Positions 37,995 through 54,862 of a stretch of 64,000 nt of DNA are shown here, in pieces. This stretch comes from Candidatus Latescibacterota bacterium (lineage in GTDB: Bacteria > Latescibacterota > UBA2968 > GCA-2709665), in contig OZ244744.1 in assembly GCA_965219455.1 (NCBI GenBank), forward strand, positions 1,088,001 through 1,152,000. The letters run 5' to 3'. Every line of letters starts with the position of its first letter. Within the stretch, counting starts at the first letter, position 1. The position numbers and the translations under genes were made by a program. Under the pieces are notes generated by a model. The model was not told the DNA's origin. It searched no databases and saw only the letters and a list, made by a program, of their open reading frames with translations.

Positions 37995-38801
37995 TTACCT
38001 CTTATCCTGCTTCGCCACCCCGCGCGTTACCAGGTATTCGACGATCTTCGGATTGATCAGATGCAGCCAGGGCAGAAATCTCAACTTGAACGGAATAATC
38101 AACTCCCGTTTCCTTTTCTTCATGGCTTTGATGATGGCCTCGCTCGCGTCCTCCAGCGAAATCGACTGCCTGCTGTGCTTTCGGCTGGACGTGCCCAGGG
38201 AGCCGCCGTCCTTTCCGAAGGCCGCCTTGCGCAAATTGGTCCCGCGCAGCCAGTGGGGCAGCACCGTAAGCACGTCCACGCCAGTGTCGAGCAACTCCGT
38301 CCGTAACGACTCGAAGAATCCCTGCACGGCGTGCTTGGACGCCACGTATCCCGTATGCAGGGGTACGCCGATCTTGCCCTGGATGGAAGAAATCGCCACC
38401 ACCATCCCGTCGCGCGCCTTCAGATGGGGTAGCGCGTAATACACGCAATGCACAATACCCAGATAGTTCGTTTCCATCAATCTGCGGAAAATCGCCAGAT
38501 CCTCCACCTCGTCAAACCGAGCCCACATGCTGATCCCGGCGCAGGCAACCAGGTAGTCCACGGCCCCGAACTCGGACACCGCCGCGTCGATCCAACCCTC
38601 GCAGTCCTCGGGTCTTCCTACGTCGCCCATGGCCGTAATCACGCGGCTGCCCCGCTCACGGCACGCTTCCGCCGTCTCCCGGACACCCTCGTCGAGGGCG
38701 AACAGCGCAAGGTCCGCTCCCTCGTCCGCGAATGCCAGCGCCAGCGTGGCGCCCAGGCCCGACGACGCACCGGTTATGGCGACGATCTTTCCACCAAACA
38801 T
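37995..38801 (-). CDS. SDR oxidoreductase (DHRS7/DHRS7B-like; candidate acyl/alkyl-DHAP reductase)
   Basis: TGASSGLG, METNYLG, ISSIQGKIGVP..TGYVASKHAVQGFFESLRTE. The specific role is inferred from context. Confidence 0.8.
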   Translation of the reverse strand: MFGGKIVAITGASSGLGATLALAFADEGADLALFALDEGVRETAEACRERGSRVITAMGDVGRPEDCEGWIDAAVSEFGAVDYLVACAGISMWARFDEVEDLAIFRRLMETNYLGIVHCVYYALPHLKARDGMVVAISSIQGKIGVPLHTGYVASKHAVQGFFESLRTELLDTGVDVLTVLPHWLRGTNLRKAAFGKDGGSLGTSSRKHSRQSISLEDASEAIIKAMKKRKRELIIPFKLRFLPWLHLINPKIVEYLVTRGVAKQDKR

Positions 38802-38836
38802 AGGCCACCTTTTGTACAATTAGACGGCGTCGATGG

Positions 38837-38862
38837 TGGGGCGACGCATACGTCGCCCCTGC
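38837..38862. repeat. REP-like palindrome
   Basis: GGGGCGACG-CATA-CGTCGCCCC between the AGPS and SDR genes. Confidence 0.7.
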
Positions 38863-38880
38863 GCCGCAAGTACAATGTCC

Positions 38881-40728
38881 TCAGTCAGTCCCCCCGAAAA
38901 CCCCATTCCGGACCCCGAAGATGTTCTTCGGATCCATGGCGTTCTTGGCCTGGCGCATGACCTGGATGCTGTTATCGGTCTGGATCTGGGTCAGAAATTC
39001 CCGCCTCACCTTGCCAACGCCATGGTGGTGCGACAACGACCCCCCGTTGTCCAGGATCACCTGGCGCAGCCGGTGTTCGATCGCGTGAAACGTCCGGCCG
39101 GGCTGTTCCAGGCCCTTGGCGTAGATGCCCATGGTAAAATAGATGCAGACTCCGGTATGATAGGTCTGCGTCACCCTGTACGAGAGATAGGGCTTCCCCG
39201 GTACGCCGTGCCGGCCGGCCTGGGCGACCAGTTCGCCGGATACCGCATCGCACACCTGGTGGATCCGGTCCCAGGGAACCGACGTCTCAAAGGTTTCGCC
39301 CAAGATGCCGTACTGATTCAGGAAGTCTCGAATATAGGCGATGCCGAACGTGAGTGAGTATCCCCGCCTGCCGTTGCTCGCGCCCGCGCTCCTGGCGCCG
39401 TACTTTTTCGCCAGGCTGAAGATCGTACGTTCCTGCTGACGCACTTCGGCGTGCGCGCCCTCCATAACGATGGTACATGCCGCCATCTTCATCGGATCGA
39501 AACCCAGGACCTTCAACAGAACGAACTTCTGAATCCGTTCTTTGACCCCTTTCAGGAACGTCGGCTCCGGCTTCAGGGCCTGACCGAAACGGAATTCGTT
39601 GTTGTTGACCAGGCGGATGCTCGCGGGCAGCATGCCTGTCTGCCGGAGCGCTTTCAAATAGGCAACACCCTTCTCGAAGGCCGGAAAGACAAGCGCCCCG
39701 TACTTGCGCGCCTCGGAGATCGGATGGATCTTCATCACGGCCGTAGTGATTATGCCGAAATTGCCCTCGCTCCCGAACAGCAATCCCCTCGGCTGAACGC
39801 CCGTCGAGTTCCTGGGCGTCACCCGGCGGGTCGCGATTTCCCCGGTGGGCGTCACCAGCGTCGCCTCGAGCACGATGTCTTCGATATTGCCGTATCGGTT
39901 CTTCTTCATCCCGCTCGCGTTTGTCGAAATCCACCCGCCCATCGTGGACAGTTCCACGCTATCCGGGTCGTGACCCGACGTATACCCCCTATCCCCCAGT
40001 ACCTGCTCCAGCCCCTTTCCCGAAATACCCGCCTCGACGCAGGCCTGCAGATTGGCCTCGTCAATCCACAGCACCCGGTTCATCCGACGCATATCCACGG
40101 ACACGATCGTGCGCCGCTCGTCGGCCGGACACGCCAGCGCCCCGCTCACGTTGGTCCCCCCGCCATAGGGCACCAGGCAGACGTCATGCTCGTTGGCCAA
40201 TTCGATCATGGCCTTGACGTCGGCTTCCTCTTCCGGATAGAACACCAGATCGACCAGCCGCGGAAGTGAATCTCCATACATCACGCGATACACTTCTTCA
40301 ACACTCAGTTGTCCGTGGCTGTGCACCAGCCTGGCTTTGGGATCGAACGAAACCTGCCCGTCTCTGAACCGTTCGTTCACCGCGTTCCCGAAAGCTGCTT
40401 CCACGTTCGGCTCAGGCTCTCCGATATCCTCGCGTTCTGCGTACGAGTCTTCCCTTCGTATCGTAATGCCCAGCACGTCCTCCACAAAGTCGACCAGAAA
40501 CGGCATCCGGTATCCCGAAATCGGGTACCTGTTCCCGGTTACCCTCAACGTCCGGTCGTCTACGAACTCGAACCGCGTATCCGTATATCCCCACTTGTGG
40601 GGGAATCGTTCCCCTTCCGAATGATCGAAAAAAGCGTCCGGTTCGTTTCCGGAACGCCTGCGTTTCGCCAGAAACACAATCGCAAGAACAACCGCTGCGG
40701 CAACCGCTGCTATTCCCCACTCTGTCAT
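38881..40728 (-). CDS. Alkyl-dihydroxyacetone-phosphate synthase (AGPS/ADPS), FAD-linked
   Basis: HSHGQ, PYGGGTNVS, GHDPDS.ELST.GGWIST.ASGMKKN.YGNIED, GSEGNFG, ETFETSVPWD, RVTQTY..G.CIYF, SHHHGVGK are all typical of eukaryotic AGPS. N-terminal TM anchor. Confidence 0.92.
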   Translation of the reverse strand: MTEWGIAAVAAAVVLAIVFLAKRRRSGNEPDAFFDHSEGERFPHKWGYTDTRFEFVDDRTLRVTGNRYPISGYRMPFLVDFVEDVLGITIRREDSYAEREDIGEPEPNVEAAFGNAVNERFRDGQVSFDPKARLVHSHGQLSVEEVYRVMYGDSLPRLVDLVFYPEEEADVKAMIELANEHDVCLVPYGGGTNVSGALACPADERRTIVSVDMRRMNRVLWIDEANLQACVEAGISGKGLEQVLGDRGYTSGHDPDSVELSTMGGWISTNASGMKKNRYGNIEDIVLEATLVTPTGEIATRRVTPRNSTGVQPRGLLFGSEGNFGIITTAVMKIHPISEARKYGALVFPAFEKGVAYLKALRQTGMLPASIRLVNNNEFRFGQALKPEPTFLKGVKERIQKFVLLKVLGFDPMKMAACTIVMEGAHAEVRQQERTIFSLAKKYGARSAGASNGRRGYSLTFGIAYIRDFLNQYGILGETFETSVPWDRIHQVCDAVSGELVAQAGRHGVPGKPYLSYRVTQTYHTGVCIYFTMGIYAKGLEQPGRTFHAIEHRLRQVILDNGGSLSHHHGVGKVRREFLTQIQTDNSIQVMRQAKNAMDPKNIFGVRNGVFGGTD

Positions 40729-40818
40729 TACGCACTCCCGATTAACACAACCGGACGGGCCCGGCGAATACGGCCGGGCAACCCTTAAGGATGACCCCGG
40801 ACGTCCCGGCCCGGATTC

Positions 40819-42759
40819 TCATTGCGAGGGTTCCGGATTCAGCAGATTTGAAATATGAACCGCCTGAAGCAGATTGGCGGCCTCCAGCTGGATTCGCAGA
40901 GACCGGCGGCGCGGCAGCAACGTGGTCTCGCCCGGCATAGGTGGCAGGATCACCGCCTCGATCACACCTGGATTTATATTCAGATTACGCGCGGGACACT
41001 TTGGCCAGAGCGCGTGGCTGCCGCGAAAGGCGATGGGAATCATCACGACGTCCTGGGGCAGTTTCGCAAACAGAGCGTGTTGCAGCGGAAACAACTGCAC
41101 GTCGAACGAAGCCGTTGTGCCCATCGGATAAATCAGACCCGGGCGGTGTTCCATCTCCTTCAGGATGCGCGGAATCGTATGGGATGAGATATCCACGCTG
41201 TCTCGAGTGATGAAGCCGTCGACGGTCTCGAACATCCGGTCGAACTTGTCGGGAGACATACCGAAGATACTGATCTCGCGGGATCCGATTTTCACCGACG
41301 TCGACTTCGCCAGTCCCGTGCGGGCCAACTGAACCACCGGTCGGGAACGATCCCATCCCATGGCATCCAGAAACACCGGATCGTTGAACACCGAAAACAC
41401 CACGAAATGCTCCAGCATGCTCTGGTGCGAGGGCAGGAACAGAATCTTCTGACCGCCACCGGAAAGGTCCATTTCCCGGACAAGTGTTCGAAACATCGGG
41501 GCTATCGTCACTTCCAGCCGGATGCCGAACGCATTCATCGTGTCCCGGGACCAGTCCAGCCAGACCTGCCAGGCGCGCTCATGCCGGAGTGGCGGCGTGA
41601 GATCCTCCTCAGCGATGCGGCGCCGGCGTTTCCCAACCCGCCAGCAGCGGCTCGCCCACTTCAACATCCGGAGTTTGCGCTGGAAGGACGTCAGTTCCTG
41701 TGTGACCCCCACGTGGGCGTAGTCCAGAAACCGACCCGTTCGGGAACCTGCCAACAGAGGTGGGAGCGCCATTTCCGCCAACCCGTCCCGGTCCCGTACC
41801 GCCGAATTCACGCCTTCCACAATCCGGGCGCTCAGATCGATCATATCCCGCGTCAGATAACTGTACGGCTGCCCGTACCAGTAGTTCTCCGGCCTGAGCC
41901 GGGAGGGATCCTCCCGGTGCGCCGCCAGGAACTCCACCAGCATACTCCTGCCCAGGTCCACGTCTGACTTCAGCGTCGCCGAGCGCGCGGGATCCGATTC
42001 CTCAATCTGGTACAGCAGGACATCGGCTTCCGCGACCACCTTCCACACCGAACTGCCGAACCATCCCAGGTTATTGTACGTGTTGTAGCGCGTGGCGAAG
42101 AGCTCACCGGCGGCGATGTAGTGCAACGTCCTCTGGGCCACGTCTTCCAGGAGTTCCCGAAGCGATCCCTTCCACGTCTTTCCATCCACCGTACAGTCGT
42201 ATTCGGCCTCCCAGTGCGGGTCGTCGTCCATCGCCACGCGCGAGAGCGCTTCGGCCACGGATCTGGCGTGTGACAGCGGCACCCGGGAGATCCGGGCCCG
42301 CGCCAGGGACGTTTCGGCCGGGTCGGGGGAGAAATCGTCCCCTTTCGCAAGCGCCTCCACGTAGAGAGACTGGTAGCGTTTCAGAAAATCACGCGCCGTA
42401 CCAGCGCCGCTCGCAACAAACTGATTCCGCAGGCGCAGATAGATCCGGCTGCCTTCGTGATACGCGGGCGTCAGTTCATCGAACTGGTCGTGGGCTTCCT
42501 TCAGACGCCTGTCCCGCAGCGCGGGAACGCCGCGATAAATCGCGTCCACAATCCGCGCACGCTTACGCAGGCCCTCGAGGCCGATCTCGTCGGCGGCACC
42601 CTCGGGCCACGTCAGGTCCCCGGTCGCCCACCCCTCGAAATAGCCTTCGGGCCGGACCGCGGCAACCAACTCGGCTGCGGCCTGATCGTAAGCGGCTCCC
42701 AGCCGGGCAGGATCCTGCATCAGGATGCGGTGTACGGGATCTGATTGATTTCGATCCAT
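40819..42759 (-). CDS. Glycerolipid acyltransferase-fold protein with unknown N-terminal domain (candidate DHAP acyltransferase)
   Basis: C-terminal ILFLPSHQSMLE (motif I variant), IYPMGT (motif III variant), MIPIAFRG (motif IV). Confidence 0.65.
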   Translation of the reverse strand: MDRNQSDPVHRILMQDPARLGAAYDQAAAELVAAVRPEGYFEGWATGDLTWPEGAADEIGLEGLRKRARIVDAIYRGVPALRDRRLKEAHDQFDELTPAYHEGSRIYLRLRNQFVASGAGTARDFLKRYQSLYVEALAKGDDFSPDPAETSLARARISRVPLSHARSVAEALSRVAMDDDPHWEAEYDCTVDGKTWKGSLRELLEDVAQRTLHYIAAGELFATRYNTYNNLGWFGSSVWKVVAEADVLLYQIEESDPARSATLKSDVDLGRSMLVEFLAAHREDPSRLRPENYWYGQPYSYLTRDMIDLSARIVEGVNSAVRDRDGLAEMALPPLLAGSRTGRFLDYAHVGVTQELTSFQRKLRMLKWASRCWRVGKRRRRIAEEDLTPPLRHERAWQVWLDWSRDTMNAFGIRLEVTIAPMFRTLVREMDLSGGGQKILFLPSHQSMLEHFVVFSVFNDPVFLDAMGWDRSRPVVQLARTGLAKSTSVKIGSREISIFGMSPDKFDRMFETVDGFITRDSVDISSHTIPRILKEMEHRPGLIYPMGTTASFDVQLFPLQHALFAKLPQDVVMIPIAFRGSHALWPKCPARNLNINPGVIEAVILPPMPGETTLLPRRRSLRIQLEAANLLQAVHISNLLNPEPSQ

Positions 42760-42885
42760 TTGTCCTCAGCCCCACAAAAAGAGCCGAAAGCCCGCCTGCG
42801 CGTGGTTTCGATTCGCCCGGTCGCGTCCCCGTTTCCGGAATCATCGACCGTTGACGGTCTTTAACCTCGAACCCCCGCAAGCCGG

Positions 42886-44520
42886 TCAATCGGCCTCGGC
42901 GGTCAACACGGAAACCGCCCCGTCCCCCTCTTTCAATACATGGTGTTTCAATCCCGGAATGTGGATCTCCTGGATATACTCCCGCCAATCGATGCGCGTC
43001 ACGTCGAAGTTGAACACCTTCCGGTCTTCCGGGTTCAGCGCCTGGAACAGCCGGCGGGTATTCTCCGTTTCGAACTCGCAGTCGAGATGGGTGTACCCGC
43101 AATATATATTGACGAGGGACTCGAGCCTGACCAGCATTGCCTCCATTCCGGAAACCCGTCGCCTGTAACGGGAAAACCACCGGGCAGGCAGATAATCGAC
43201 GGCCGCCTTCAAAAGGCTCAGCGGAAGCTTGTATTTCAATGCAACCAGCCAGCAGAACCGCCGCCTGCTGATGAACTGCCAGGGCCGGACTTCAATGGGC
43301 CGCCCGTACCGGTCCTGCATGGGCGAGGTCTTGAAGTACCCGTAAACCAGTTCGACCATCTCACCCGCCCGCACCGGATTCTGTGAGCCCGACGCCACCT
43401 GGTAGACCTTCATCTCCCGCGACCCATGCACCTGTGGAAGCACCGCCGTGACGGCGTTGTTTAACATGTCCACGGGTATAATATCCAGCACGATCCCCGG
43501 ATCGATGGGGAAATTGGACAGACGACCCTTGCCGTAGTGGACGATCAGCGGGTCGGCGACTTTCAGATCCTCCACCCAGCCCGGCTCCGGGTCCTCGAGG
43601 CTGCTCTCTACGATGGCCGGACGGACGATGGCCGTTGGAAGGTCACCCCTCGACTTTACGATCAACTGCTCACCCATCGCCTTGGTGAGCGTGTAGCTGT
43701 CGTTCCAGCCGAACCTCCGCGCCCGCCGCATCCCGTCGTCCACCAGTTGCTTCCGAATCCAGCGCTGCCGAAGCGCTTCGACCTGGTGCGCTTTCCGGTA
43801 TTCGGTCACACGTTTGCCACGGTCCTGGCGCCTGAGTTGCTTCAGGAATGCCGCCTCCAGGTCGGGCTTTTTGGACGCCGCCTGGACCTCCTGGGCGAAA
43901 GCCCGGATGGCATCGATCTCGCCCTGCAGGTCGAACCCGGCCGGGGTTTCGTTGATGAGATCCGAAGCGCTCCGATCCTGGGGAAACGGGTCCTCGGGAA
44001 TCCGGCCGGTCCGCTGTCCGCTTACGTACGCGGTCGACACGTGAACCAGCGCGGCTTTCCGGCAGGTTTTTGCGAAGGCCACGACCCGCGCCGCCCCCAT
44101 GGTATTCTGTTCGAGCGCACTGTCGATGGGCTCGTCGAAAACCACGGTTCCGGCGAAATTCACCACAAAGTCCGCTTCTTCAATCAGACGCTCGCGCTGT
44201 TCGGAGGAAATTCCCAGTCCTTCTTCGGTCAGGTCTCCGGCGACCGCGACGACCTTCTCTGCCATCACCAACGGAAACGCCGCGCCCCACCTCGTCCTCA
44301 GCCTTGCGAACGCGCGCGACTGAAGGACCTCCGCCTCCAGCCGCTCCGCCTCGGAAACCCGTTGGCCGTTGGAACGCGACCGCGGCCGGATCAGGAGATA
44401 GATCCGCGCCACCTCCGGCGCGGAAAACAGGATCTTCTCCACGAATCCCTTCGCCAGAAACCCAGTCGCGCCGGTTACAAACAGCGTCTTGCCGCTCAGA
44501 AACTCTGAAATGGACTGCAT
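42886..44520 (-). CDS. Alcohol-forming fatty acyl-CoA reductase (FAR/male-sterility family)
   Basis: TGATGFLAK, HVSTAYV, YTLTKAMGE, IVRPAIVES..PEPGW, DIIPVD, C-terminal FNFDVTRIDW..Y...HIPGL. Confidence 0.92.
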   Translation of the reverse strand: MQSISEFLSGKTLFVTGATGFLAKGFVEKILFSAPEVARIYLLIRPRSRSNGQRVSEAERLEAEVLQSRAFARLRTRWGAAFPLVMAEKVVAVAGDLTEEGLGISSEQRERLIEEADFVVNFAGTVVFDEPIDSALEQNTMGAARVVAFAKTCRKAALVHVSTAYVSGQRTGRIPEDPFPQDRSASDLINETPAGFDLQGEIDAIRAFAQEVQAASKKPDLEAAFLKQLRRQDRGKRVTEYRKAHQVEALRQRWIRKQLVDDGMRRARRFGWNDSYTLTKAMGEQLIVKSRGDLPTAIVRPAIVESSLEDPEPGWVEDLKVADPLIVHYGKGRLSNFPIDPGIVLDIIPVDMLNNAVTAVLPQVHGSREMKVYQVASGSQNPVRAGEMVELVYGYFKTSPMQDRYGRPIEVRPWQFISRRRFCWLVALKYKLPLSLLKAAVDYLPARWFSRYRRRVSGMEAMLVRLESLVNIYCGYTHLDCEFETENTRRLFQALNPEDRKVFNFDVTRIDWREYIQEIHIPGLKHHVLKEGDGAVSVLTAEAD

Positions 44521-45013
44521 AACATCCCGACGTGAACAAAAAACCCGTTTCCTCGCCCTCGAAGTACAGACGCCGGATTACTGAAGAGCATCCGACTCTG
44601 CTCCTCCTTCTTAGCGCTGGGAGGTCAAGTAAACGGGGCGACTCAATTTCGCGAAATTGTAATGTGCAATGCCAACTCCAAACTGCACCACCGGAGTTCG
44701 TTTGCCAGATAAAGAAGGAAATTCAAGAACCGCTTCGAGTCAAGGGAAATCTACTTTCGCCAACCTTCTGCCATGTGTCCGGAGGCGGATTGCCGCCGAT
44801 GAAGATATGCGCCACACGCTATAGACCGGATGTACCCGTATCCGCTGGTATTTCTCCTCGAGGCGCCACTAGCGTTGAGATCGGCCATGGGCGCACTTCC
44901 GCACCTTGCAATCCGAAACGATACTGACTATATTACCTCAAAATACGGATTGAAGACCGTGTCTGCACATCGAATATCCCATCCTCCTCTTATCTATATT
45001 TATAAATTATAAT

Positions 45014-46345
45014 ATGTTAAATGCCAATCAGACCGATCGATTGCATCATAAAATGAAGGCGCAGAACAAACTGCGGCCCGAAGACAGAGCGGTTCATGAC
45101 TGGTATCGTTTCATCCTGTCATTCCCGCCTCACCTGGTCCGCGACTATCTCGACCGGTTCGACGTTAGACGGTCCGACACGGTCCTCGACCCATTTTGTG
45201 GGACCGGAACCACGCCCGTAGAGTGCAAAAAGCTCGGCATCGGCAGCGTTGGGATCGAGCCGAACCCCATGGCGTTTTTCGCAAGTTCGGTGAAGGTCGA
45301 CTGGCGTGTAAGTCACGAAGAGTTGCTCGGCTACGCGGAAGAGGTAGCGCTATCGACGAAGAAGACGCTGGAAGAACAGGGCTTTGATGAATGGAAGGAT
45401 CTTCCTCTTTTCGCAGCAAATGGAAATCCGACAACCACGCTGAAGGAACTTCCTGCTGAACGGTCGAAAATACTCTTGAAGGACTCTATCAGCCCGCGTC
45501 CTCTGCACAAGGCACTCGTGCTGCTGGATACAATCGACCGGCACGGAAATCATCAGTTGCAACGTTACGGCCGCCTCTGCTTTGCCAACGCACTGGTACA
45601 CCGCATCAGCAACCTCAAATTCGGGCCGGAGGTCGGGGTCGGGAAAATTAAATACGATGCACCGGTCGTGGACGCCTGGCTTGATTGTATACGGACTGCT
45701 GTCCGGGACGTTCACCTTTATGATGGCCGGGCAAGCATCGCCAGCCGAATCATCAACGCCGACGCTCGCAACGTCGAAAACATCCTGAAACCGGGTTCCG
45801 TCGATTTTGTAATTACCTCCCCGCCATATCCGAACGAGAAGGATTACACGAGAACGACCCGCCTGGAATCTGTTGTTCTCGGCTTGATAAAAAACCGACG
45901 TGAACTGAGGATGCTGAAACAGAATCTGGTCAGGTCCAACACACGCGGCGTCTACAAAGCCGACACCGACGACCGGGAAATCGCGGACAATGTTGCAATA
46001 CGCAGCATCGCGGATGAAATAGAAAAACGGCGTATCGCCCTCGGCAAGACATCGGGTTTCGAGCGCCAGTACGCCCGCGTCACCCTCCTCTATTTCGGGG
46101 GCATGGCAAAGCACCTGGCGTCTCTTCGACCCGCTCTCAAACGGGGGGCAAAGCTCGCGTACGTGGTGGGCGACCAGGCGTCCTATCTGCGGGTGATGAT
46201 CAGAACGGGCGAACTTCTGGCCGGTATCGCGGATACATTGGGTTACACTGTCACCGGGATCGACCTGTTTCGAACCAGGCCTTCTACAGTGACGGGTGAA
46301 CAGCTCAGGGAAGAAGTCGTAAACCTGGAATGGCCCGGCCGTTGA
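45014..46345 (+). CDS. Amino (probably N4-cytosine) DNA methyltransferase
   Basis: Motif I DPFCGTGTT precedes motif IV TSPPY. Confidence 0.88.
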   Translation: MLNANQTDRLHHKMKAQNKLRPEDRAVHDWYRFILSFPPHLVRDYLDRFDVRRSDTVLDPFCGTGTTPVECKKLGIGSVGIEPNPMAFFASSVKVDWRVSHEELLGYAEEVALSTKKTLEEQGFDEWKDLPLFAANGNPTTTLKELPAERSKILLKDSISPRPLHKALVLLDTIDRHGNHQLQRYGRLCFANALVHRISNLKFGPEVGVGKIKYDAPVVDAWLDCIRTAVRDVHLYDGRASIASRIINADARNVENILKPGSVDFVITSPPYPNEKDYTRTTRLESVVLGLIKNRRELRMLKQNLVRSNTRGVYKADTDDREIADNVAIRSIADEIEKRRIALGKTSGFERQYARVTLLYFGGMAKHLASLRPALKRGAKLAYVVGDQASYLRVMIRTGELLAGIADTLGYTVTGIDLFRTRPSTVTGEQLREEVVNLEWPGR

Positions 46346-47175
46346 CGAGCGGAGAGGAGTACCGCATTTCTGCCAAGAATCGCTATTCAGCCATCATAGA
46401 GGCAATCTTCCATGCCAGGTTCCAACCGGGTCAACGTGAAGTTGATTTTGAACGGGAAGACATCGTTACGTTCGCCTCTGAACTCAACATTGGCGTACCA
46501 AGGAATCTCGGCGACGTGATCTACAGTTTCCGCTACAGGACACCGCTTCCCGACAGTATTCGGGAAACGGCGCCAGACAAAGAGACGTGGATCATCAGGG
46601 GCGCTGGCACGAGTCGGTACAGGTTTGTCCTGGTGAGTGATATACCGCTCACGCCGAATCCGAACCTGTCGGTCACAAAGGTCCCGGACTCTACTCCGGG
46701 AATAATTGCCAGGTACTCTTTCAGTGATGAACAGGCTGTACTGGCCCGGGTTCGATACAACCGTTTGATCGACATCTTCCTGGGCATCGCCTGCTACTCG
46801 CTGCAGAACCATCTCTGGACGACCGTGCCGAATATGGGCCAAGTCGAAACCGACGAAATTTACGTGGGTGTTGATAAAAGCGGTTCCCACTATGTGATAC
46901 CGGTCCAGGCCAAGGGTGGCAATGACAGACTCAGCAGGGTTCAGATCGAGCAGGACATTGCGCTTTGCACCGACAAATTACCAGACCTGATTTGCCGCCC
47001 GATTGGTGCGCAAATCATGCGGGACGATGTGATTGCGCTTTTGGAATTCGAGGAGGACGGAAACGATATTCGAATCGTCTCGGAGAAACAGTATCAATTG
47101 GTGCCGCCGGACGCCGTAACTCGGGAGGATTTAAAAAGATACAGGCAGCGATTGTCCGACGGTACGGGGGGTTGA
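46330..47175 (+). CDS. Probable type II restriction endonuclease
   Basis: Overlaps the MTase end; ETDEIY...VQAK is a PD-(D/E)xK-like motif. Confidence 0.7.
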   Translation: MARPLTSGEEYRISAKNRYSAIIEAIFHARFQPGQREVDFEREDIVTFASELNIGVPRNLGDVIYSFRYRTPLPDSIRETAPDKETWIIRGAGTSRYRFVLVSDIPLTPNPNLSVTKVPDSTPGIIARYSFSDEQAVLARVRYNRLIDIFLGIACYSLQNHLWTTVPNMGQVETDEIYVGVDKSGSHYVIPVQAKGGNDRLSRVQIEQDIALCTDKLPDLICRPIGAQIMRDDVIALLEFEEDGNDIRIVSEKQYQLVPPDAVTREDLKRYRQRLSDGTGG

Positions 47176-47213
47176 AGGATGGAAAACAACGGGATCGAGA
47201 TAAACACTTGAAT

Positions 47214-47414
47214 TCACTCGGCGTGTTGCGATAGTAGCGCTCTGACTGAGGGAACCAACGGGTTGGGGATTTGCATCAGCGTGTGCGTTTTGTACTGAAG
47301 AGCCGTCTCATCTTCCACCACTGCCTCTTCCTCTGTCTGTGATTCGTAATGTTGTAGAAGCCGTTGGACACGTTCCTCGTCCCAGCCGTTTGGAAACCTG
47401 GTCATATTCTTCAT
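47214..47414 (-). CDS. Small antitoxin-like hypothetical protein
   Basis: FPNGWDEERVQRLLQHYESQTEEEAV.EDE...IP..LVPSVRALL, recalled as a small TA-associated family. Confidence 0.5.
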   Translation of the reverse strand: MKNMTRFPNGWDEERVQRLLQHYESQTEEEAVVEDETALQYKTHTLMQIPNPLVPSVRALLSQHAE

Positions 47415-47601
47415 CTTTTTCTCGGCCGCGATATGGGGCGGATTGTTTGGCTCTAAGTTCCGGTAACTGAATCTCCTACAAGTAGTCATCCGTCAGAAGC
47501 CATACTTGAAACTGCGCCGGACAAAGAGACGTCGATTATTCACGCTGCAAGAGCGATGTAGTCCATTTACAGTCCTGCGATAATATCATCGAATTTAAAA
47601 C

Positions 47602-48390
47602 TCAACTATTGTGATTCTCCGAGACAAAACGTTCATACGTCTTCCTTAGTTTCTTATACGCCTGCACGAAATTCTGACCTGCTTTTGTCCGCAATTCTGC
47701 ATCCATAAACCTTGCTGTATTTGATTCCAAGAACGACTGTCGTATAAGAATTAGACTACCGTCTTTTCTAAATCCTAATTCCTTAACTTCGGTCTTATTA
47801 TGTCGTGAAACATGGAGGAACCACTCACACCCTCCATAAGCCAAAAGATATACATGCAAACCGTCTAATCTAAGCCGAAACGCCGGAGATACAAGACTGT
47901 GAACAATAGCATCATTGTGGACTAGGAGCTGGCCAATAATCGAATACTCATGTTCTTCGCCAGCATTTTCACTGAGAATCAGTTGAGCAATGCGTCTTTC
48001 GTGAGGCCCCAGACTAACAGTAGCGAATGCTTTGTCTTTAGATACCGAACAACGCCAAAGAACGCTTAAATGAAACAACTTAAACGTAGTATAATCAAAC
48101 CCCTCTAATCTCCAATATTCTTTCGTACATTGCACCGGCAACCGACCCCGGGCATACCAATCAGTTCTAAAACGTCCCTCAATCTTACTCAAATGTTGCT
48201 CACACTTTACACATAACAGAGGTTCGCGAATTCCCTTTTGTACGATGATTCGTGATATTTCGTGAGTATTAAATTTGATCGCCCGGTGCTTCGGATCATA
48301 ACAATACTTATAAAGAAACTCTGGCAATATATGAGAGTTTTGTAGTTTGCTGACACACCCACAAAGTTTGCAAATTTCACCTTGACTCAT
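47602..48390 (-). CDS. HNH/zinc-finger endonuclease-like hypothetical protein
   Basis: CKLC...SHILP...LLCVKCE; AT-rich relative to the flanks. Confidence 0.6.
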   Translation of the reverse strand: MSQGEICKLCGCVSKLQNSHILPEFLYKYCYDPKHRAIKFNTHEISRIIVQKGIREPLLCVKCEQHLSKIEGRFRTDWYARGRLPVQCTKEYWRLEGFDYTTFKLFHLSVLWRCSVSKDKAFATVSLGPHERRIAQLILSENAGEEHEYSIIGQLLVHNDAIVHSLVSPAFRLRLDGLHVYLLAYGGCEWFLHVSRHNKTEVKELGFRKDGSLILIRQSFLESNTARFMDAELRTKAGQNFVQAYKKLRKTYERFVSENHNS

Positions 48391-48541
48391 TTTTTTGGTC
48401 TCAAAAAAAACGCGACTTATACGCGGTAGGTTTTCACGAACAACGATACAAAAGAAAAACCAACAACAACCATCCCATCATATAACATTGAGTTCGGAGA
48501 TTGCGTTGTGTAATGAATGAGTCGCTTGATAACTGTAGCAG

Positions 48542-49627
48542 TCACGGAGCATCGCCGCCAGATCCAGCCAAATGCCGCTGCAGCAGATTGTACGCGGCTC
48601 GAGCATTTGCATACTCACTTTTTATATCGCGATATATCGCGTCGGTTAGGTGACGGGACGGATGCGCCAGGTTCCGCAGGCTTCGCATCATTTCAATGAG
48701 CGATCGTGAACTTATCCGTTGATCCCCAACTACAAATTCAGGTAGCCAACCTGCCGCGGCTGCCACCCGCTCAAGGTCTACCAAGGTCCATCGCTTAGGA
48801 TTCTCTCGTCTCGGCCGCTCGGATTCCGACATTCGATCACGGACGTACTGTACATGGTCAAGGTGCTTCAAACATGCAGATAGGAGGGCAGCCTCCATTG
48901 CGGACCCGATCATGACCGTTGCAGCGTAATATGCTCCCCTTTTGGCACATTTTTCGGCTTCGTCTTCGAATCGTTTCTGAACAGCGTACAACTGTTCTAC
49001 CTCGGATTTTTCCACATGAGCGAGTTGGCGACCTTGCGCTCGTTGCGCGTCGTACGATTTGCGGTCCTGGCAGTATAGATCAGCTATGTCGTCAAGGCCG
49101 TATTCCCGCAGTGCCTCTTCGAACTTCCTCTCTGTTACTTTCTCGTATTGCTGCTCCAATTTCTCCAAATCATCCGGTCCGTCCCCGATGGGCCAGTACT
49201 CGTCATCATCAAGGCCCTCCCGCTTGCGTATGGCCTCCATGCCCGCGTTAATCTCACCGAGGTCAGATTCGTACAAACCGTCCAGCAAGCGTTCTTCGTG
49301 AACACGTTCGATCGGGTACAACCTAAGCAGAAAACGACAGCTCGGGTCTAACCTACCCGCTGCTTCCGCCCATTCAACAGTTTCGAGCCACACTTTCGCT
49401 TCGGCTTCGACGTCGGACAAGCATCGCTGGTTTCTTCTGGGAACCTCGGTTTCCGAGATACGTTGAAGCTCGTGTGCACAACCTTGAAACTGTTCAAAAG
49501 CCCAGAAACTTTTCAGGATTGTCTCAAGGCCTTGAATTTCTTGATCGGTCAGAGACCCGCCGTCTGTCTGGTCTTCCTCGGTCGAATCATCCATTTCGTT
49601 TCTCCGTCTTGCGATATCCACGTTCAA
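48542..49627 (-). CDS. Hypothetical protein with C-terminal HEPN-like domain
   Basis: AATVMIGSAMEAAL...LRNLAH (R-X4-H). Confidence 0.6.
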   Translation of the reverse strand: MNVDIARRRNEMDDSTEEDQTDGGSLTDQEIQGLETILKSFWAFEQFQGCAHELQRISETEVPRRNQRCLSDVEAEAKVWLETVEWAEAAGRLDPSCRFLLRLYPIERVHEERLLDGLYESDLGEINAGMEAIRKREGLDDDEYWPIGDGPDDLEKLEQQYEKVTERKFEEALREYGLDDIADLYCQDRKSYDAQRAQGRQLAHVEKSEVEQLYAVQKRFEDEAEKCAKRGAYYAATVMIGSAMEAALLSACLKHLDHVQYVRDRMSESERPRRENPKRWTLVDLERVAAAAGWLPEFVVGDQRISSRSLIEMMRSLRNLAHPSRHLTDAIYRDIKSEYANARAAYNLLQRHLAGSGGDAP

Positions 49628-49737
49628 TACGGACTGATCGAAAAAAAGAATTCAAAAAAATCGCTTGCTTGTAACCACCCCTCCCAAGCCGATTTCGATC
49701 GTTAGCAAGTTATCGGAACAAAAAGCACTTGGGCGCC

Positions 49738-52700
49738 TCAATCGCCCTTTGCCCCGTAAAAGAGATCGCCTGTCGTTTTTTTGACCTTTGGAGGTTTGCG
49801 CATTTCGTCCGGTACTGGTGGTAATTCGTCGGCTCGGAAGCAGTCGCTTTTGATGATGGCGTCGAGTAGCCGCGCCTGTTCGGGATAGGATTCGACAGTC
49901 GCCTCCAGTACCCAGAGCAAATCAAGTAGCTCGGTGGTGAACTGACTCGTCCAGCGCTTTGGACGAATCTCGTCAAGATCTGAAGATTTCCTGCCCGCTC
50001 GTCTCTTCATGCGGTACTTAAGCCAAGACTGTACGACCTTGAGACCCGAAACCTCAAACTCGTAGACCTCGGGAGGGACAGGCGCAAACTCGCCCTCACC
50101 GACGCGGAGAATTTCCTTCACGTCGCTATAGCTAAATTTGTCTGGGTAGTTCTCCGGATCCCCGGGAACGCCCTTTTCACATTTGGCTGCGCCGCGGGGA
50201 ACGTGACCACGTGGCTGATCTTCAGGAACGAACCGTTCGCCGTACGTGTGTAGCCAGAGCAACCGCACGCCTGTCGTTTTTACCTTTTGAAACAGTGCCG
50301 CGTCCTTCGTTAACGGTACACGTAGTTGGCGCAGGCCAATTGTAATGTTTGTCTCGACAGCATTTGTATTTGAAACGCCCGGTGAATCCTGGATGCGGTA
50401 GAGGGGGATAACTGCTTTAGCGCCAAATGAACCGCGAAAATGGTCGAGGTCAGGAAGATATGCAGCGCACGTCAAGGCAGGCCCAGATCCAAGCGGTTGA
50501 GAGAAGAGGCTCGTAACGTACACTTGCTGTTCGCCGTGAGTCCGCCATAGATCAGGGCGCAGGTAATCTCCCAACCTTGCATCGGCTATCATTAACTGGC
50601 GGTCGAATGAGCGATAGGCATATCGAGTTATTTTCCGGATAGGTGCATCTTTAGAAAGTTCCACCAAAGGTGTTCCCGCATCATCACGATCATATATTGG
50701 AGAGCAATTGGATTGGATTTTTCGATCGCGTGTCTCCTTGAATGATTTCGCCAAATGTTCCCGATTTGGAGACGCGAGCAATGCGCGCCAGCGCCGTTCC
50801 AGCAGCTCGCTATCGGGGGCGATGGGCCATGTCCTCTTGAACTGAACACCCGAATGTTGCCATGGCATAAGATCAGTAAGAAGCGGCCAGGTGAAGTACT
50901 CCCCACTGCCCGCCGGACGAAATGGGGCCTGCCAGTTGTCCGGACAATCCAGCCATTTCAAGCTAGAGTGCGCAAGTCCCTCAACGTCGTCGAGTACGGC
51001 GAGTTTCTCTGCCCGGGTACCCTCCACCAGGGCATAGTGGACGTGTGCGGGCTTGTCAGCGGCAACTTTCTCAGAACGCAGAGCCACGGCAATTGCGACA
51101 GGAGTTTGGATCGCAAAGACATTTTCGCTCCTGTGGGTGCCACGACCTTCGCCACCCAGGTCGATAATCCAAATCTCGTCGCATTGCCGACGCATGTGCT
51201 CACGCATTCCGCAAAAGGCATCACCGTCGAGATAGCTCGACGCACTGATGAAGCTGACAATGCCGGGACCTTTGGCGGCGTTTTTCTCAATGACCTTCCA
51301 CAGCGCCCAGCGCCAAAAATAGACATAAAGGTTGTAGAGGTTCTTGACACGGACACCATGCCCGGACGAACGTGCGGGAGCGATGAAATCCTTAAGAATG
51401 GCAAGTTCCTGTCTCTTCGAGAGCCTGGATTTGGGAGTCTTTAACTCTCTTTCTCTACCCCTTTCATCCTTATATTTATTGCCCGGCAGTGGGTCGGTGA
51501 ATCGAACCCATCCACCATATCGTGAGAGATTTTCTTCACTTTCTTTCAAGACTGCATCGTGCCGGTCGTAGGGTGGATTCCCAATGCAAACGATGACCGG
51601 AACTGAACTCTTAATCTTAAGTGCCTTTTTGTGCTGATCGGCGATAGGCCTCAGAAAAAAAGGCATTTGGGGAGGCTCAGCGTGTGGGCTTTCAAGAGTG
51701 TCGGTCAGATATATGCGGGTACCGCCGTTGGGAAGTGTTGCGCCGTTGTCATGCAGTGCGCGGTTTACCCTAAGTTCGCTGACTGCGAAGGGGCCAACCA
51801 TCAGTTCGAAGCCGTGCAGGTTTTTGGCCAACGTCGTGGCTTGACCAGGGACCGCACCCTTGCCCTGTTCTGCTTTAACCCGGCCGAGGGCGTGTTCGAT
51901 CACGCCGAGGAGATAGGTTCCGGTTCCGACCGCGGGATCGAGCGTGACGACACCTGGGTCGGCGAAACCGAGAGGCTTACCGAGACGCCTTACCAGCAAA
52001 TCGTCAATCAGACGCACCTGAGCGCGAACTACCTCGATGGGCGTGTAATATGCCCCGGCGTCCCTGCGCAGCCCGGGGTCATAGACGGCAAGGAAGTCTT
52101 CGTAGAAATAGAGCCACGGATCCTCAGGACCCGTAAGCGCGGCCGGAGATACGTGATCGATAACCCGTAGCAGCAAGTTAAGTGATGCGGATATCTCGGA
52201 ATGCGCGTTTTCGTCTGTTAAAACTTGGAGGGCTTTCGACAGCAGGCTGTGTTGAACAGCCAAGGCGTCTTGTGCAGTTTTCAGAGTTAGAGGATCAGCC
52301 CCTTCGCTCCGACCCAGCAGCAAGCCAAAGGTCACGGTTTGGGCGTACGCGTCGGCGAACTGCTCGTCCGACGCGTCTGGAAAGAGCAGTTGCCGCCAGT
52401 CTCGTGCAAGCTCCACGAGGGGCGAAGTGGGATTCTTAAGCGCGTCCTTGACGTCATCGCGCAACATCCGGCACAAAGGTGCCAACAGCGAAGCGAATCC
52501 CTTGAGTTCGATCTTTCCATCCTTGCCCCTTGGGATGCTGGGTTTCCACGAGAGAAAATCCCGCAGCACGCGTTCCACTGCGTGGGCGTTCGCCGAAACG
52601 ACGGCCTTCTTGCCATCCGCGGCTATATCACCTTCAAGGTGAACGATACTGCCAACCCGTTCGCCGCTCCGATAGATCGCCCATTCGTTGCCATCGGTGT

Positions 52701-53037
52701 ACAGGATATTCGGAATGGCCGAAAAACGTTTGAATTGATCGCGATTGTGACCCGTGAACCGAGAGGCCGTTGCACCGACGCCGGGTGCCTTTAGCTCGAC
52801 ATAACCGGCGGGAAGTTCTTTTATCAGAACAGCGTAGTCCGGGCGTCCGATGCGGTCAGGCATGGGAGTTTCCCCCCTGCAACTGACCTTCCAACCGAGC
52901 ACACCTGCCGCTTCGACCATAAACGACTTAAATGGAGATCGTAGTTGTTCTTCGGGCTCGCCAGGAGTGAACGGTGTAGAGTCCGCCGCCACCGACGCCG
53001 CGAAGCCTTGTAAAGCCGCGTAAATTGAGGTTTTCAT
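49738..53037 (-). CDS. Single-chain restriction-modification enzyme (type ISP/IIG-like, no helicase)
   Basis: PDY...VELK nuclease, YFYEDFL..YD, GAYYTP, DPAVGTGT, GNPPY, YAYRSFDRQ and VVQSWLKYR C-terminal specificity domain. Confidence 0.88.
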   Translation of the reverse strand: MKTSIYAALQGFAASVAADSTPFTPGEPEEQLRSPFKSFMVEAAGVLGWKVSCRGETPMPDRIGRPDYAVLIKELPAGYVELKAPGVGATASRFTGHNRDQFKRFSAIPNILYTDGNEWAIYRSGERVGSIVHLEGDIAADGKKAVVSANAHAVERVLRDFLSWKPSIPRGKDGKIELKGFASLLAPLCRMLRDDVKDALKNPTSPLVELARDWRQLLFPDASDEQFADAYAQTVTFGLLLGRSEGADPLTLKTAQDALAVQHSLLSKALQVLTDENAHSEISASLNLLLRVIDHVSPAALTGPEDPWLYFYEDFLAVYDPGLRRDAGAYYTPIEVVRAQVRLIDDLLVRRLGKPLGFADPGVVTLDPAVGTGTYLLGVIEHALGRVKAEQGKGAVPGQATTLAKNLHGFELMVGPFAVSELRVNRALHDNGATLPNGGTRIYLTDTLESPHAEPPQMPFFLRPIADQHKKALKIKSSVPVIVCIGNPPYDRHDAVLKESEENLSRYGGWVRFTDPLPGNKYKDERGRERELKTPKSRLSKRQELAILKDFIAPARSSGHGVRVKNLYNLYVYFWRWALWKVIEKNAAKGPGIVSFISASSYLDGDAFCGMREHMRRQCDEIWIIDLGGEGRGTHRSENVFAIQTPVAIAVALRSEKVAADKPAHVHYALVEGTRAEKLAVLDDVEGLAHSSLKWLDCPDNWQAPFRPAGSGEYFTWPLLTDLMPWQHSGVQFKRTWPIAPDSELLERRWRALLASPNREHLAKSFKETRDRKIQSNCSPIYDRDDAGTPLVELSKDAPIRKITRYAYRSFDRQLMIADARLGDYLRPDLWRTHGEQQVYVTSLFSQPLGSGPALTCAAYLPDLDHFRGSFGAKAVIPLYRIQDSPGVSNTNAVETNITIGLRQLRVPLTKDAALFQKVKTTGVRLLWLHTYGERFVPEDQPRGHVPRGAAKCEKGVPGDPENYPDKFSYSDVKEILRVGEGEFAPVPPEVYEFEVSGLKVVQSWLKYRMKRRAGRKSSDLDEIRPKRWTSQFTTELLDLLWVLEATVESYPEQARLLDAIIKSDCFRADELPPVPDEMRKPPKVKKTTGDLFYGAKGD

Positions 53038-53694
53038 TTGCGTTCTTGCCTCACCTAATGCAACGGTTTGCGCACTTACTCAGGTGCCAAACGGATGCAG
53101 TTCCTACGAAAAAATCAGTCGAATGGCGCGAAAACAAGCCACGTATTCGATATTATAGGGATAGTCGCAAATTGCGACAAGCGCAACTTGAAACGCCGGT
53201 AAGTCTCAATGCTGTGTGCATCGAGAGAAACGACACATGGTTGGTTCAACGACCCCAGCGCATCGTACAACCGTATAGTCGGGACGGATACTCGAAAAAC
53301 AGCAGGAAGCTTAGACTGGAAGCGCAATGTGGACGCCAATTTGAAGTACATGGCCCGTCTAGGACCAAGCGGGCCGGAATCCATACGAGGGCGGCGCAGT
53401 CTCCATGCGAAAATTCGGACAAAATACACGCATAACCCCCTGTGTCTCACGCCGATCCAGCGCGGACAGATGACGGACGCGAATCTTGTATTGGTCGCCG
53501 CAATGAATTATATTGGTGTCTGTTTACCCATTACAGAATGGGGCATCCAATGTCAGCTATCTGCGAAGTATTGCTTAGGAAAGCAGGCTGGCTTTGGAGC
53601 ACGAAAATGCGCTATGCGCGTTCGTAAACTGACGTGGGCATTTGCAAGTCTGCGAGAATGACGCCGGGCGTGCTGGTTATCTGGGGAGATATTT

Positions 53695-54756
53695 ATGATA
53701 CGAGAAACTGTTGATCGAATACGCACGTCGCTCAAATCTGGGCAATTTACCAACGAGGCATCGATATCTCAGGGGGTTGTGCTACCTGTATTGCAGGCAC
53801 TCGATTGGCCTGTATTCGATACATCCGTGGTAACCCCCGAATATTCCGTTGAGTCCGGACGGGTCGACTACGCTCTTCGTGAAACAACGGGGCGTCCAAA
53901 AATTTTCGTAGAGGTAAAGAGGCTTGGCCAGACGAATACCGGGGACAGGCAGTTGTTTGAGTACGCTTTCCATCAAGGAGTTCCGATGGCAGTCCTTACG
54001 GACGGTCATGAATGGAGCTTCTATCTACCGGGAGAAGAAGGACAGTACGAAGAGCGGCGTGTGTACAAACTTGATCTCCTCGAAAGATCTCCTGCTGAAT
54101 CCACCGAACGACTGCATCGATATTTGAACTACGGGCGAGTAATTTCGGGTGAGGCATTATCTGCTGCCCGGAACGACTACAGGAATGTTGCACGAGATAG
54201 ACTAATCGGCGACTCCATGCCAAGAGCCTGGCATCAGCTTCTGTCGGGGTCGGACGAAATACTCGTCGAATTGCTTGCTGACAAAGTCGAGGACATTTGC
54301 GGATATAAGCCCGAGCCGGACGTTTGCTCGCAGTTCATCCAAACAAAAGCGGATCCACAACGTGCACACATTGAGAACGGTGGTCGAGAACAGCAAGAGC
54401 CGCCATCACGGCCCTCGCCTCGACAAGACAAAGGCTTCACATATCGCGGTGAATTTCACTCGGCGAATTCAGCGCGGGAGGTCCTTCGAAGGGTCCTGAT
54501 CACATTTGCGGAGGATGATCCAGAGTTCTTGGGAAGGTTTGCCGAGAGGAAACATGGCCGGACGAGAAGATGGATAGCGAGATCCGAGAATGAACTTAAC
54601 CCTGACCGACCGGACTTAGCAGAAAAATCCGTTGAACTGGTACAGGGTTGGTGGATGGGAACCAATTACAGCAGACGACGAATTGAGAAAATAGCCAAAC
54701 TTGCGTGTGAAGTCGCCAATGTTGAGATTGGGAAAGACTTGGTAGTTTCGCTTTAA
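53695..54756 (+). CDS. HsdR-N-like PD-(D/E)xK nuclease fused to a SeqA-C-like domain
   Basis: PEY...RVDYAL...VEVK...QL.EY...LTDG..W; C-terminal HGRTRRWIA...WWMGTNYS. Confidence 0.7.
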   Translation: MIRETVDRIRTSLKSGQFTNEASISQGVVLPVLQALDWPVFDTSVVTPEYSVESGRVDYALRETTGRPKIFVEVKRLGQTNTGDRQLFEYAFHQGVPMAVLTDGHEWSFYLPGEEGQYEERRVYKLDLLERSPAESTERLHRYLNYGRVISGEALSAARNDYRNVARDRLIGDSMPRAWHQLLSGSDEILVELLADKVEDICGYKPEPDVCSQFIQTKADPQRAHIENGGREQQEPPSRPSPRQDKGFTYRGEFHSANSAREVLRRVLITFAEDDPEFLGRFAERKHGRTRRWIARSENELNPDRPDLAEKSVELVQGWWMGTNYSRRRIEKIAKLACEVANVEIGKDLVVSL

Positions 54757-54862
54757 TTGCCCGTGGCATTTTGATTGTACAAAAACCCGCCTATATCACA
54801 ACGCGACCCACTTTAAGTACAAACTGGATTGATCTGCCCTAATAAGGGGGGCGGGAGACTCA

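Follow-up and report, generated by a model that had tools for sequence, protein, structure and literature searches.

A four-gene operon that is supported computationally as a complete acyl/alkyl-dihydroxyacetone-phosphate (DHAP) pathway was found in a stretch of 64,000 nucleotides, referred to as the window, from the genome of a Candidatus Latescibacterota bacterium (contig OZ244744.1; G000:C1:1088001-1152000). The operon encoded a fatty acyl reductase (FAR), an acyltransferase (AT), an alkyl-DHAP synthase (AGPS) and a short-chain dehydrogenase/reductase (SDR). Because the genome was found without GpsA, PlsY, PlsX and PlsB, and the class of the organism without GpsA and PlsY, we consider with moderate confidence that the operon is the main acyl/alkyl-DHAP entry into glycerolipids and not an accessory pathway. 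The genome was a single contig of 5.84 Mb without N and was rated 100% complete. Positions 37995-44520 of the window were filled exactly by four co-oriented open reading frames (ORFs) on the minus strand, namely the FAR (P0004, 42886-44520, 544 aa), the AT (P0003, 40819-42759, 646 aa), the AGPS (P0002, 38881-40728, 615 aa) and the SDR (P0001, 37995-38819, 274 aa, with a TTG start). The gaps between them were 126, 90 and 61 bp, and the GC content of the four genes was 0.595-0.617. This layout agreed with an initial annotation made from the letters of the window, hereafter the original prediction, which had described four genes in the same direction with short gaps.

Comparison with solved structures made the identification of P0002 as an AGPS (EC 2.5.1.26) secure, with the exchange of an acyl chain for a fatty alcohol as its predicted reaction. 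P0002 was matched over residues 45-608 by guinea-pig AGPS (4bby) at 9.6e-150 (503 bits), and Dictyostelium AGPS (2uuu) matched at 5.7e-87, whereas the best non-AGPS match was a D-lactate dehydrogenase at 3.2e-24, with glycolate oxidase at a similar level (3e-24) and no more than 89 bits to any other solved flavoprotein. The AGPS identity thus held against a grouping with lactate or glycolate oxidases. The domains PF01565 (FAD_binding_4; 1.6e-38, residues 160-299) and PF02913 (FAD-oxidase_C; 1.3e-35, residues 338-604) were found, and the glcD family TIGR00387 scored 157 bits, far under its cut-off of 567.9. All three motifs quoted in the original prediction were present (ASGMKKNRYGNIED at residue 271, RVTQTY at 518, SHHHGVGK at 566), as was ASIRL at 369. 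The blocks SHHHGVGK, RVTQTY and ASIRL aligned identically with guinea-pig AGPS, and we take three elements to be catalytic, namely the His-His-His loop and, within RVTQTY and ASIRL, the Tyr and the Arg, respectively. By a hand count, P0002 was ~43% identical to guinea-pig AGPS (242 of 564 aligned columns). A membrane anchor is suggested by the N-terminus, where a hydrophobic stretch (residues ~5-21) precedes KRRR. The AGPS paralogues in the genome were just 31-32% identical over part of their length. A search found 4102 AGPS-like proteins, and the best 120 of these were all bacterial, with source names that included Poribacteria, Marinimicrobia, Gammaproteobacteria, Gemmatimonadota and Latescibacteria. 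An impression that P0002 was closer to animal than to myxobacterial AGPS was dropped, given the ~43% identity here and the ~42% reported between the AGPS of M. xanthus and the human enzyme (bioRxiv 10.1101/2025.10.10.681575).

P0004 carried the NAD_binding_4 domain (PF07993, 7.8e-64) and the Sterile domain found at the C-terminus of FARs (PF03015, 3.7e-16), and the solved FAR 7eoz matched it at 3.4e-89. The motifs GATGFL at residue 17 (GxxGxxG) and YTLTK at residue 276 (YxxxK) were present. These features identify P0004 as a fatty acyl-CoA/ACP reductase (CoA, coenzyme A; ACP, acyl carrier protein) of the alcohol-forming type, with the alcohol product and the CoA or ACP donor as predictions. 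It was the sole strong PF07993 match in the genome (217 bits, against 46.7 for the next best).

The AlphaFold2 model of P0003 (predicted local distance difference test 85.3, predicted template-modelling score 0.88) indicates that this protein is a divergent representative of the glycerol-3-phosphate acyltransferase (GPAT)/PlsC fold class and belongs to a family of its own. The top Foldseek match of its C-terminal part was T. maritima PlsC (5kym; E 6.7e-4, probability 1.00, template-modelling score 0.58-0.61 on the target), and the plastidial GPATs 8ia1 and 1k30 also matched this part with probabilities of 0.98-0.99. Foldseek and the motifs placed the catalytic domain of GPAT/PlsC fold in the C-terminal ~245 residues (40819-41559, minus strand). 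The HX4D/E motif was HQSMLE at residues 445-450, in which H445 was invariant and position 450 was acidic in all 24 family members compared (Glu in 8, Asp in 16). The other conserved blocks, ARTGL at 479, YPMGTT at 544 (YP-x-[GA]-TT) and IPIAFRG at 574 (IP-x-x-x-RG), are read here as motifs II-IV of the GPAT/lysophospholipid acyltransferase superfamily. PF01553 was matched by 9 of the 24 members, at best with 8.9e-08. The N-terminal ~400 residues (41560-42759, minus strand) formed an almost wholly helical domain in the model, for which no Pfam match, no Atlas match and no credible Foldseek match in the PDB were found. The conservation of this domain across the family extended to many invariant residues, YSYLTRD at 299-305 among them. 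The family was small and isolated: 74 clusters were obtained in a word-indexed search, and an exhaustive phmmer search over 1.84 billion representatives gave 50 matches, all of them from the AT family itself and ~8 of them full-length. The original prediction had put an acyltransferase-fold protein at the GNPAT step. The PlsC/GPAT fold was borne out, but in the phmmer search, which returned its own family only, P0003 was not recognisable as an orthologue of GNPAT or of the acyltransferase module of the myxobacterial FARAT, and it is placed in a separate family and not filed under GNPAT. P0003, which was single copy in the genome, is proposed as a DHAP (glycerone-phosphate) O-acyltransferase from its adjacency to AGPS and the absence of GpsA where the family occurs. 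An AT-AGPS fusion of 1250 aa on one metagenome contig (P0247) was rejected as most likely a frameshift or assembly error that joined adjacent genes, and it speaks for adjacency only; its similarity to the AT ended ~80 residues early and was replaced by a Pro/Arg/Gly-rich sequence before the AGPS part.

P0001 was a classical SDR (PF00106, 1.1e-42) with the motifs TGASSGLG at residue 16 (TGxxxGxG) and YVASK at residue 158 (YxxxK), and that part of the earlier assignment stood. It scored 286.6 bits with NF004825 of NCBIfam (cut-off 215), an equivalog family that carries no functional name. Its neighbours in the PDB were generic SDRs at 1e-24 to 1e-21 (clavaldehyde dehydrogenase, 3-hydroxybutyrate dehydrogenase and 11-beta-HSD1), and its matches in the Atlas were generically named SDR clusters only. 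The other part, the identity as an acyl/alkyl-DHAP reductase (EC 1.1.1.101-like), is proposed from synteny only: the substrate would follow from the conserved adjacency to AGPS and from another SDR that occupies the same slot in one relative, L027.

The conservation of the cluster was analysed in the best 80 of 150 confirmed AT-family loci. The closest related records were metagenome-assembled genomes (MAGs) labelled Candidatus Latescibacterota, with a few labelled Gemmatimonadota. The order FAR-AT-AGPS-SDR, co-oriented, was found in 37 of the 80 loci, an arrangement that exceeds chance. FAR-AT-AGPS without an SDR orthologue was found in five loci; four were cut by a contig end, and the fifth was L027 of family f3, in which a different SDR (26% identical) stood in the P0001 slot after AGPS. 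A further nine loci had FAR-AT only (three cut by a contig end), and the AT stood alone in 29. Among the 43 loci that lacked the full cluster, seven were cut by a contig end such that a missing gene could be hidden. A tree built from 81 AT sequences placed the genes of AT-alone loci in one supported clade of 29 rows (Shimodaira-Hasegawa-like approximate likelihood ratio test 97), which split in two groups. The genes beside the stand-alone AT (M81 peptidase, NfeD/Band 7 and ABC permease) included none related to lipids. In families f1-f3 of the window's class the AT sat between FAR and AGPS. In f4 the operon was split and the AT was far from AGPS, and the SDR was at most 2 kb from AGPS in 51 of the 57 genomes having the SDR (coordinates compared by eye). 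The co-occurrence of the four genes elsewhere, which had been expected, was thus seen in the ordered cluster of 37 loci and in the wide distribution of AT, AGPS, SDR and FAR in the class. Some f2 relatives had small genes for DUF6036 nucleotidyltransferases and a Fic/DOC gene inserted between the cluster genes, either AT and AGPS or AGPS and SDR (L026:11758-12351, L040:13428-13973 and L040:9808-10899). None of these inserted ORFs was lipid-related, and they resemble insertions of the toxin-antitoxin type.

The genome-wide context, in which GpsA, PlsX, PlsY and PlsB were all missing, is more surprising than the cluster and was overlooked in the original prediction. No match in the genome was found for PlsY (PF02660; control positive in 8 of 14 genomes), PlsX (PF02504; 9 of 14) or GpsA (PF07479; 10 of 14, which were all the bacterial controls). 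PF01553 matched one protein, of 224 aa and in the context cmk-plsC-rpsA, which is PlsC; since this sole match was PlsC-sized and in PlsC context, PlsB was scored as absent. All frames of at least 150 aa from the plsY-gpsA loci of four relatives in the phylum were also used as tblastn queries. None of the plsY or gpsA frames matched the genome at 1e-3, and the flanking genes of these loci, used as the control, matched at 1e-112 and 9e-91. No GlpD-type C-terminal domain was found in the genome. The original prediction had seen no plasmalogen desaturase in the window, and none was found in the whole genome with the CarF/PEDS1 profile (PF10520), a soft negative because the control was positive in 0 of 14 genomes, or with the Ger/PlsR domain (PF09989).

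The presence of these genes was then compared across 140 genomes of the phylum that were at least 85% complete, 116 of which belonged to families f1-f4 (the window's class, window included) and 24 to other families. The AT was present as a single copy in 116/116 genomes of the class and in 2/24 of the others. PlsY was found in 0/116 genomes of the class, many of them closed chromosomes, and in 21/24 of the others; GpsA was likewise found in 0/116 and in 21/24, in the same genomes as PlsY and adjoining plsY. The remaining genes of the cluster were common in the class: AGPS in 110/116 (1/24 elsewhere), FAR in 114/116 (3/24) and the SDR orthologue, at an identity of at least 51%, in 106/116 (1/24). 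Eleven genomes of a second AT-alone clade had neither PlsY (0/11) nor GpsA (0/11). Among 12 further AT-bearing genomes with varied phylum labels, GpsA was found in one (G161) and PlsY in four, one of them the Trueperaceae-labelled L069. The presence of the AT family thus goes together with a missing GpsA more closely than with a missing PlsY. One genome, G010, had FAR and AT and lacked AGPS, the SDR orthologue, PlsY and GpsA.

Several side observations were made in this survey. The FAR matches of f4 were just 37-46% identical and mostly lay inside ElbD-like frames of ~1400 aa; in G118 (C1:2280878-2282476) and ~45 other f4 genomes the best FAR match was inside open frames of ~1400-1480 aa, which are presumed to be multidomain proteins like ElbD and are probably what was published as 'elbD hits' for Latescibacterota. 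In 12 genomes of genus g10 (G061, G062, G063, G064, G065, G066, G069, G073, G075, G076, G078 and G080) the FAR match crossed one TAG near the C-terminal end, where the alignment probably ran past the stop of a shorter protein. Outside the window's class, G025 (f12, 96% complete) and G021 (f10, 93% complete) were without AT, PlsY and GpsA, and G025 had an ElbD-like FAR-containing frame of 1449 aa. A FAR-AT pair was found in L061, labelled Gammaproteobacteria. The ATs of L061 and of L069, which is labelled Trueperaceae, were on long branches of the AT tree and carried phylum labels outside the Fibrobacteres-Chlorobi-Bacteroidetes group; these clusters could be the result of horizontal transfer or could come from mislabelled MAGs.

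A five-step route can be proposed from these results. The FAR would form a fatty alcohol by reducing an activated fatty acid, and the 646-aa AT would acylate DHAP to 1-acyl-DHAP, with DHAP as the acceptor that we infer. The AGPS would then swap the acyl chain for the fatty alcohol to form 1-O-alkyl-DHAP. P0003 and P0004 are taken as the suppliers of AGPS because they were the only candidates in the genome for 1-acyl-DHAP and fatty alcohol, and they flanked AGPS. A reductase is needed because the product of AGPS is a ketone, and the SDR conserved beside AGPS would reduce the C2 keto group to give 1-O-alkyl- (probably also 1-acyl-) sn-glycerol-3-phosphate, a stereochemistry that is predicted. 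Finally, the single conventional PlsC of the genome would acylate this product at sn-2. The original prediction had proposed four steps leading to 1-O-alkyl-glycerol-3-phosphate, and at the genome level each of its assignments held. The absence of GpsA leaves no evident de novo source of glycerol-3-phosphate (G3P), and the absence of PlsB and PlsX/PlsY leaves no conventional first acylation, so that there may be no other route. In the simplest account, held with the moderate confidence given above, all glycerolipids would start with acylation of DHAP by the AT, and the reduction would take place on the lipid ahead of PlsC. The membranes probably hold a large share of 1-O-alkyl (plasmanyl) lipids. 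The ether lipids are predicted to be of the alkyl and not the vinyl-ether type because no CarF/PEDS1 or Ger/PlsR domain was found, with the limit of the PF10520 control given above. For a wider proposal the chances appear even: that the whole class (116/116) and at least one sister clade discarded GpsA with PlsX/PlsY or PlsB, and make all their glycerolipids by a peroxisome-like acyl/alkyl-DHAP route with a previously unrecognised AT family, acylation at the ketone stage and a stereocentre set by the SDR, giving membranes rich in 1-O-alkyl ether lipids.

Several observations weigh against the operon as the main entry. P0003 itself had no sequence match in Pfam, NCBIfam or the PDB, and none to PF01553 even at E <= 1; an hhalign comparison of the AT family with the genome's own PlsC was not significant (probability 0.33), and the family profile found nothing meaningful in the PDB (best E 0.083, to an unrelated 87-aa protein). 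The acceptor of the AT, DHAP or G3P, cannot be read from sequence. The search for GpsA covered the GpsA type and left out alternative glycerol-phosphate dehydrogenases such as the archaeal glycerol-1-phosphate dehydrogenase type. A glycerol kinase was present at G000:C1:2860395-2861861 (L091:6396-7886), beside a metallophosphoesterase gene and with no adjacent glycerol facilitator or GlpD, and its TIGR01311 score of 672.9 bits (cut-off 590.35) marks it as genuine. Free glycerol can therefore serve as a source of G3P, which is a possible substrate of the AT. The SDR orthologue was missing in f3 (0/3) and in genus g24 (0/4). In the second AT-alone clade, true AGPS was found in 0/11 genomes (the best match was 30-32% identical in the FAD domain only), and the closest SDR was only 32-35% identical to P0001. 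This SDR aligned end to end with P0001 and passed the NF004825 cut-off (230.9 bits), and its neighbours, a Gfo/Idh/MocA oxidoreductase and an aminotransferase, were not lipid-related. Both systems occurred together in G027 (same assembly as G161), where PlsY and GpsA accompanied the whole cluster; an add-on is thus another role that the cluster can have. L069, with a chromosome of 3.15 Mb and the full FAR-AT-AGPS-SDR cluster, kept two copies of PlsY and had no GpsA. A strict 'sole route' is weakened by the glycerol kinase, by the reductase step of the AGPS-less clade and by the two systems in G027. Related genomes are moreover not independent, and the pattern in the class may reflect one or few evolutionary events. 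As to expression, contigs of sponge metatranscriptomes (four runs), mostly at least 99% identical, covered parts of all four genes and of the neighbouring bioD and bioA, and left 44100-45500 and most of the AGPS middle without cover, a gap that is uninterpretable with contig data. They lend weak support to expression and are also compatible with separate transcripts; all four runs came from one study, and the libraries could contain DNA carry-over.

The alternative that survives best keeps the same chemistry and makes the operon accessory, with the bulk ester phospholipids started by unrecognised enzymes or from GlpK-derived G3P. The glycerol kinase and the two cluster-bearing genomes that retain PlsY, G027 with GpsA in addition, fit such a role, as does the AGPS operon of M. 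xanthus, which is reported as one of two non-essential routes to ether lipids (bioRxiv 10.1101/2025.10.10.681575), and if P0003 escapes PF01553, other divergent acyltransferases could too. Set against this, PlsY and GpsA were missing throughout the class, many of whose chromosomes are closed; the AT was strictly single copy and universal there, as for a housekeeping gene; the only other PF01553-type protein was PlsC in size and context; and the AT was kept in 11 genomes without AGPS, so it is not dedicated to ether lipids. We regard the accessory role as possible and rather unlikely. It is less probable still, and in our view distinctly doubtful, that the AT is a G3P acyltransferase in place of PlsB/PlsY, with acyl-DHAP from another source or a side activity and another substrate for the SDR. 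The fold and motifs of the AT are those of G3P and lysophosphatidic acid acyltransferases, neither AGPS nor a close SDR orthologue accompanies the AT in the second clade, and in f4 the AT is remote from the AGPS-SDR pair; yet GpsA is missing where the AT occurs (0/116, 0/11 and 1/12), which leaves no de novo G3P, FAR and AGPS flank the AT in f1-f3, and the window's genome has no other candidate for making acyl-DHAP. It is very improbable that the output of the cluster lies outside the membrane, be it a free fatty alcohol, a wax ester, a neutral alkyl-glycerol or a signalling lipid comparable to TG-1, the developmental ether lipid of M. xanthus. FARs also serve wax and alcohol production, and M. 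xanthus is reported to use ether lipids in development (PMC9131029), but no wax synthase or tailoring gene was conserved in the cluster (the inserted ORFs were DUF6036 and Fic/DOC), and a module that is universal in the class where the canonical lipid entry is lost points to a core role in the membrane. An ordinary GlcD/D-lactate dehydrogenase-type flavoprotein in a coincidental neighbourhood, for which the PF01565/PF02913 architecture common to GlcD and the low TIGR00387 score might speak, is effectively refuted by the bit scores, by the identical AGPS-specific blocks and by the synteny conserved in 37 of the 80 loci.

The operon as the main entry into glycerolipids can be compared with known systems. 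AGPS in bacteria had been described in the original prediction as mainly discussed for myxobacteria, which proved too narrow, as homologues have been reported in 67 of 92 Latescibacterota MAGs from the Black Sea and in many phyla (PMC11868695), and also in sponge Latescibacterota MAGs (bioRxiv 10.64898/2026.06.23.733905). AGPS in Latescibacterota had thus been known before; this system is a variant of a known pathway in that its architecture is unfused, its AT family is new and its SDR lies within the operon. The operon of M. xanthus is reported to contain AGPS, a FAR-GNPAT fusion and a protein of the NAD-dependent epimerase family, with AGPS needed for ether lipids, and it has been proposed that eukaryotes obtained FAR-GNPAT and PEDS1 from myxobacteria, with AGPS phylogenetically uninformative (bioRxiv 10.1101/2025.10.10.681575). 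As in M. xanthus, in which MXAN_1676 has been experimentally implicated in ether-lipid synthesis, the operon described here combined AGPS, FAR, an acyltransferase and a nucleotide-dependent reductase-type protein. It differed in that FAR and acyltransferase were separate genes, the gene order was different, the AT was of another family, one that escapes Pfam and has a helical domain of ~400 aa at its N-terminus, the reductase was a classical SDR and not an epimerase/dehydratase-type protein, and no CarF/PEDS1 was found (PF10520 control 0/14). The absence of GpsA, PlsX, PlsY and PlsB was scored in the present host only.

The mammalian peroxisomal pathway (FAR1, GNPAT, AGPS and PexRAP/AGNPR, EC 1.1.1.101) has the same four chemical steps (PMC9131029), and FAR and acyltransferase are separate proteins in Holozoa as well (bioRxiv 10.1101/2025.10.10.681575). 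The active-site blocks of AGPS are identical, and the FAR here has the eukaryote-type FAR_C 'Sterile' domain. The AT, in contrast, is not detectable as a GNPAT orthologue, and P0002 has an N-terminal hydrophobic anchor instead of the peroxisomal targeting signal of mammalian AGPS. In animals the ether pathway is a side branch beside G3P acylation, whereas here it may be the trunk. The canonical bacterial entry (GpsA with PlsB or PlsX/PlsY, followed by PlsC) and the one proposed here would both deliver a 1-substituted sn-glycerol-3-phosphate to PlsC; here, however, the backbone would be acylated as DHAP and reduced later, so that the stereocentre of glycerol would be set by an SDR at the lipid stage. 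In yeast (Gat1/Gat2 with Ayr1) and in trypanosomatids, lysophosphatidic acid arises by acylation of DHAP followed by an SDR-type reduction, and these organisms also have G3P dehydrogenases and G3P acylation, with enzymes in the recognised GPAT/GNPAT families. In the myxobacterial route of the ElbD type (elbA-E), which is not known to include an AGPS, ElbD contains a FAR module and an acyltransferase module; no ElbD-like multidomain protein is present in the window's genome, because its one strong PF07993 match was the 544-aa FAR. The published 'elbD hits' in Latescibacterota (PMC11868695) probably include the FAR described here. No mention of a loss of GpsA/PlsY in Latescibacterota or of a bacterial acyl-DHAP trunk was found in the literature, with the supplementary tables of the surveys outside the scope of this search.

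Upstream of the operon, the intergenic region 44521-45013 (493 bp, no strand assigned) is presumed to contain the promoter region of FAR and is shared with a divergent DNA methylase gene. A consensus promoter scan found three sites where 2.3 were expected by chance and no minus-strand site in this region, and a terminator scan was also at chance level (10 found, 7.0 expected). Below the cluster, bioD and bioA were located on the plus strand, convergent with the operon. A region of lower GC content (0.49-0.55, against 0.60-0.65 around it) extended over 44500-57300, starting just upstream of the operon, and resembles a defence island. Its genes encode the DNA methylase (45014-46345), a Type ISP restriction-modification enzyme (49738-53037), an HSDR_N protein (53695-54756) and a DUF7380/DUF4209 protein (54876-56687). 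A second lower-GC stretch (0.51-0.56) was found at window positions 6000-20000 and, unlike its neighbours, had a positive GC skew.

If the operon is the main entry into glycerolipids, Latescibacterota of this class would be a free-living bacterial lineage that starts its membrane lipids from DHAP and not from G3P, an exception to the textbook bacterial pathway. This would bear on the 'lipid divide', since a lipid-stage reductase and not GpsA would decide the stereochemistry of the backbone. The AT family, with its large extra domain, would join the short list of enzymes that start glycerolipids (PlsB, PlsY and GPAT/GNPAT), and the presence of this family together with the absence of GpsA and PlsY would be a simple genomic marker of the route. 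Likely bacterial producers of alkyl ether lipids in sponges and marine sediments would be named as well. The operon would also be a second bacterial FAR/acyltransferase/AGPS/reductase module, one without fused genes and with its reductase encoded in the operon, which would be relevant to the proposed myxobacterial origin of the pathway in eukaryotes.

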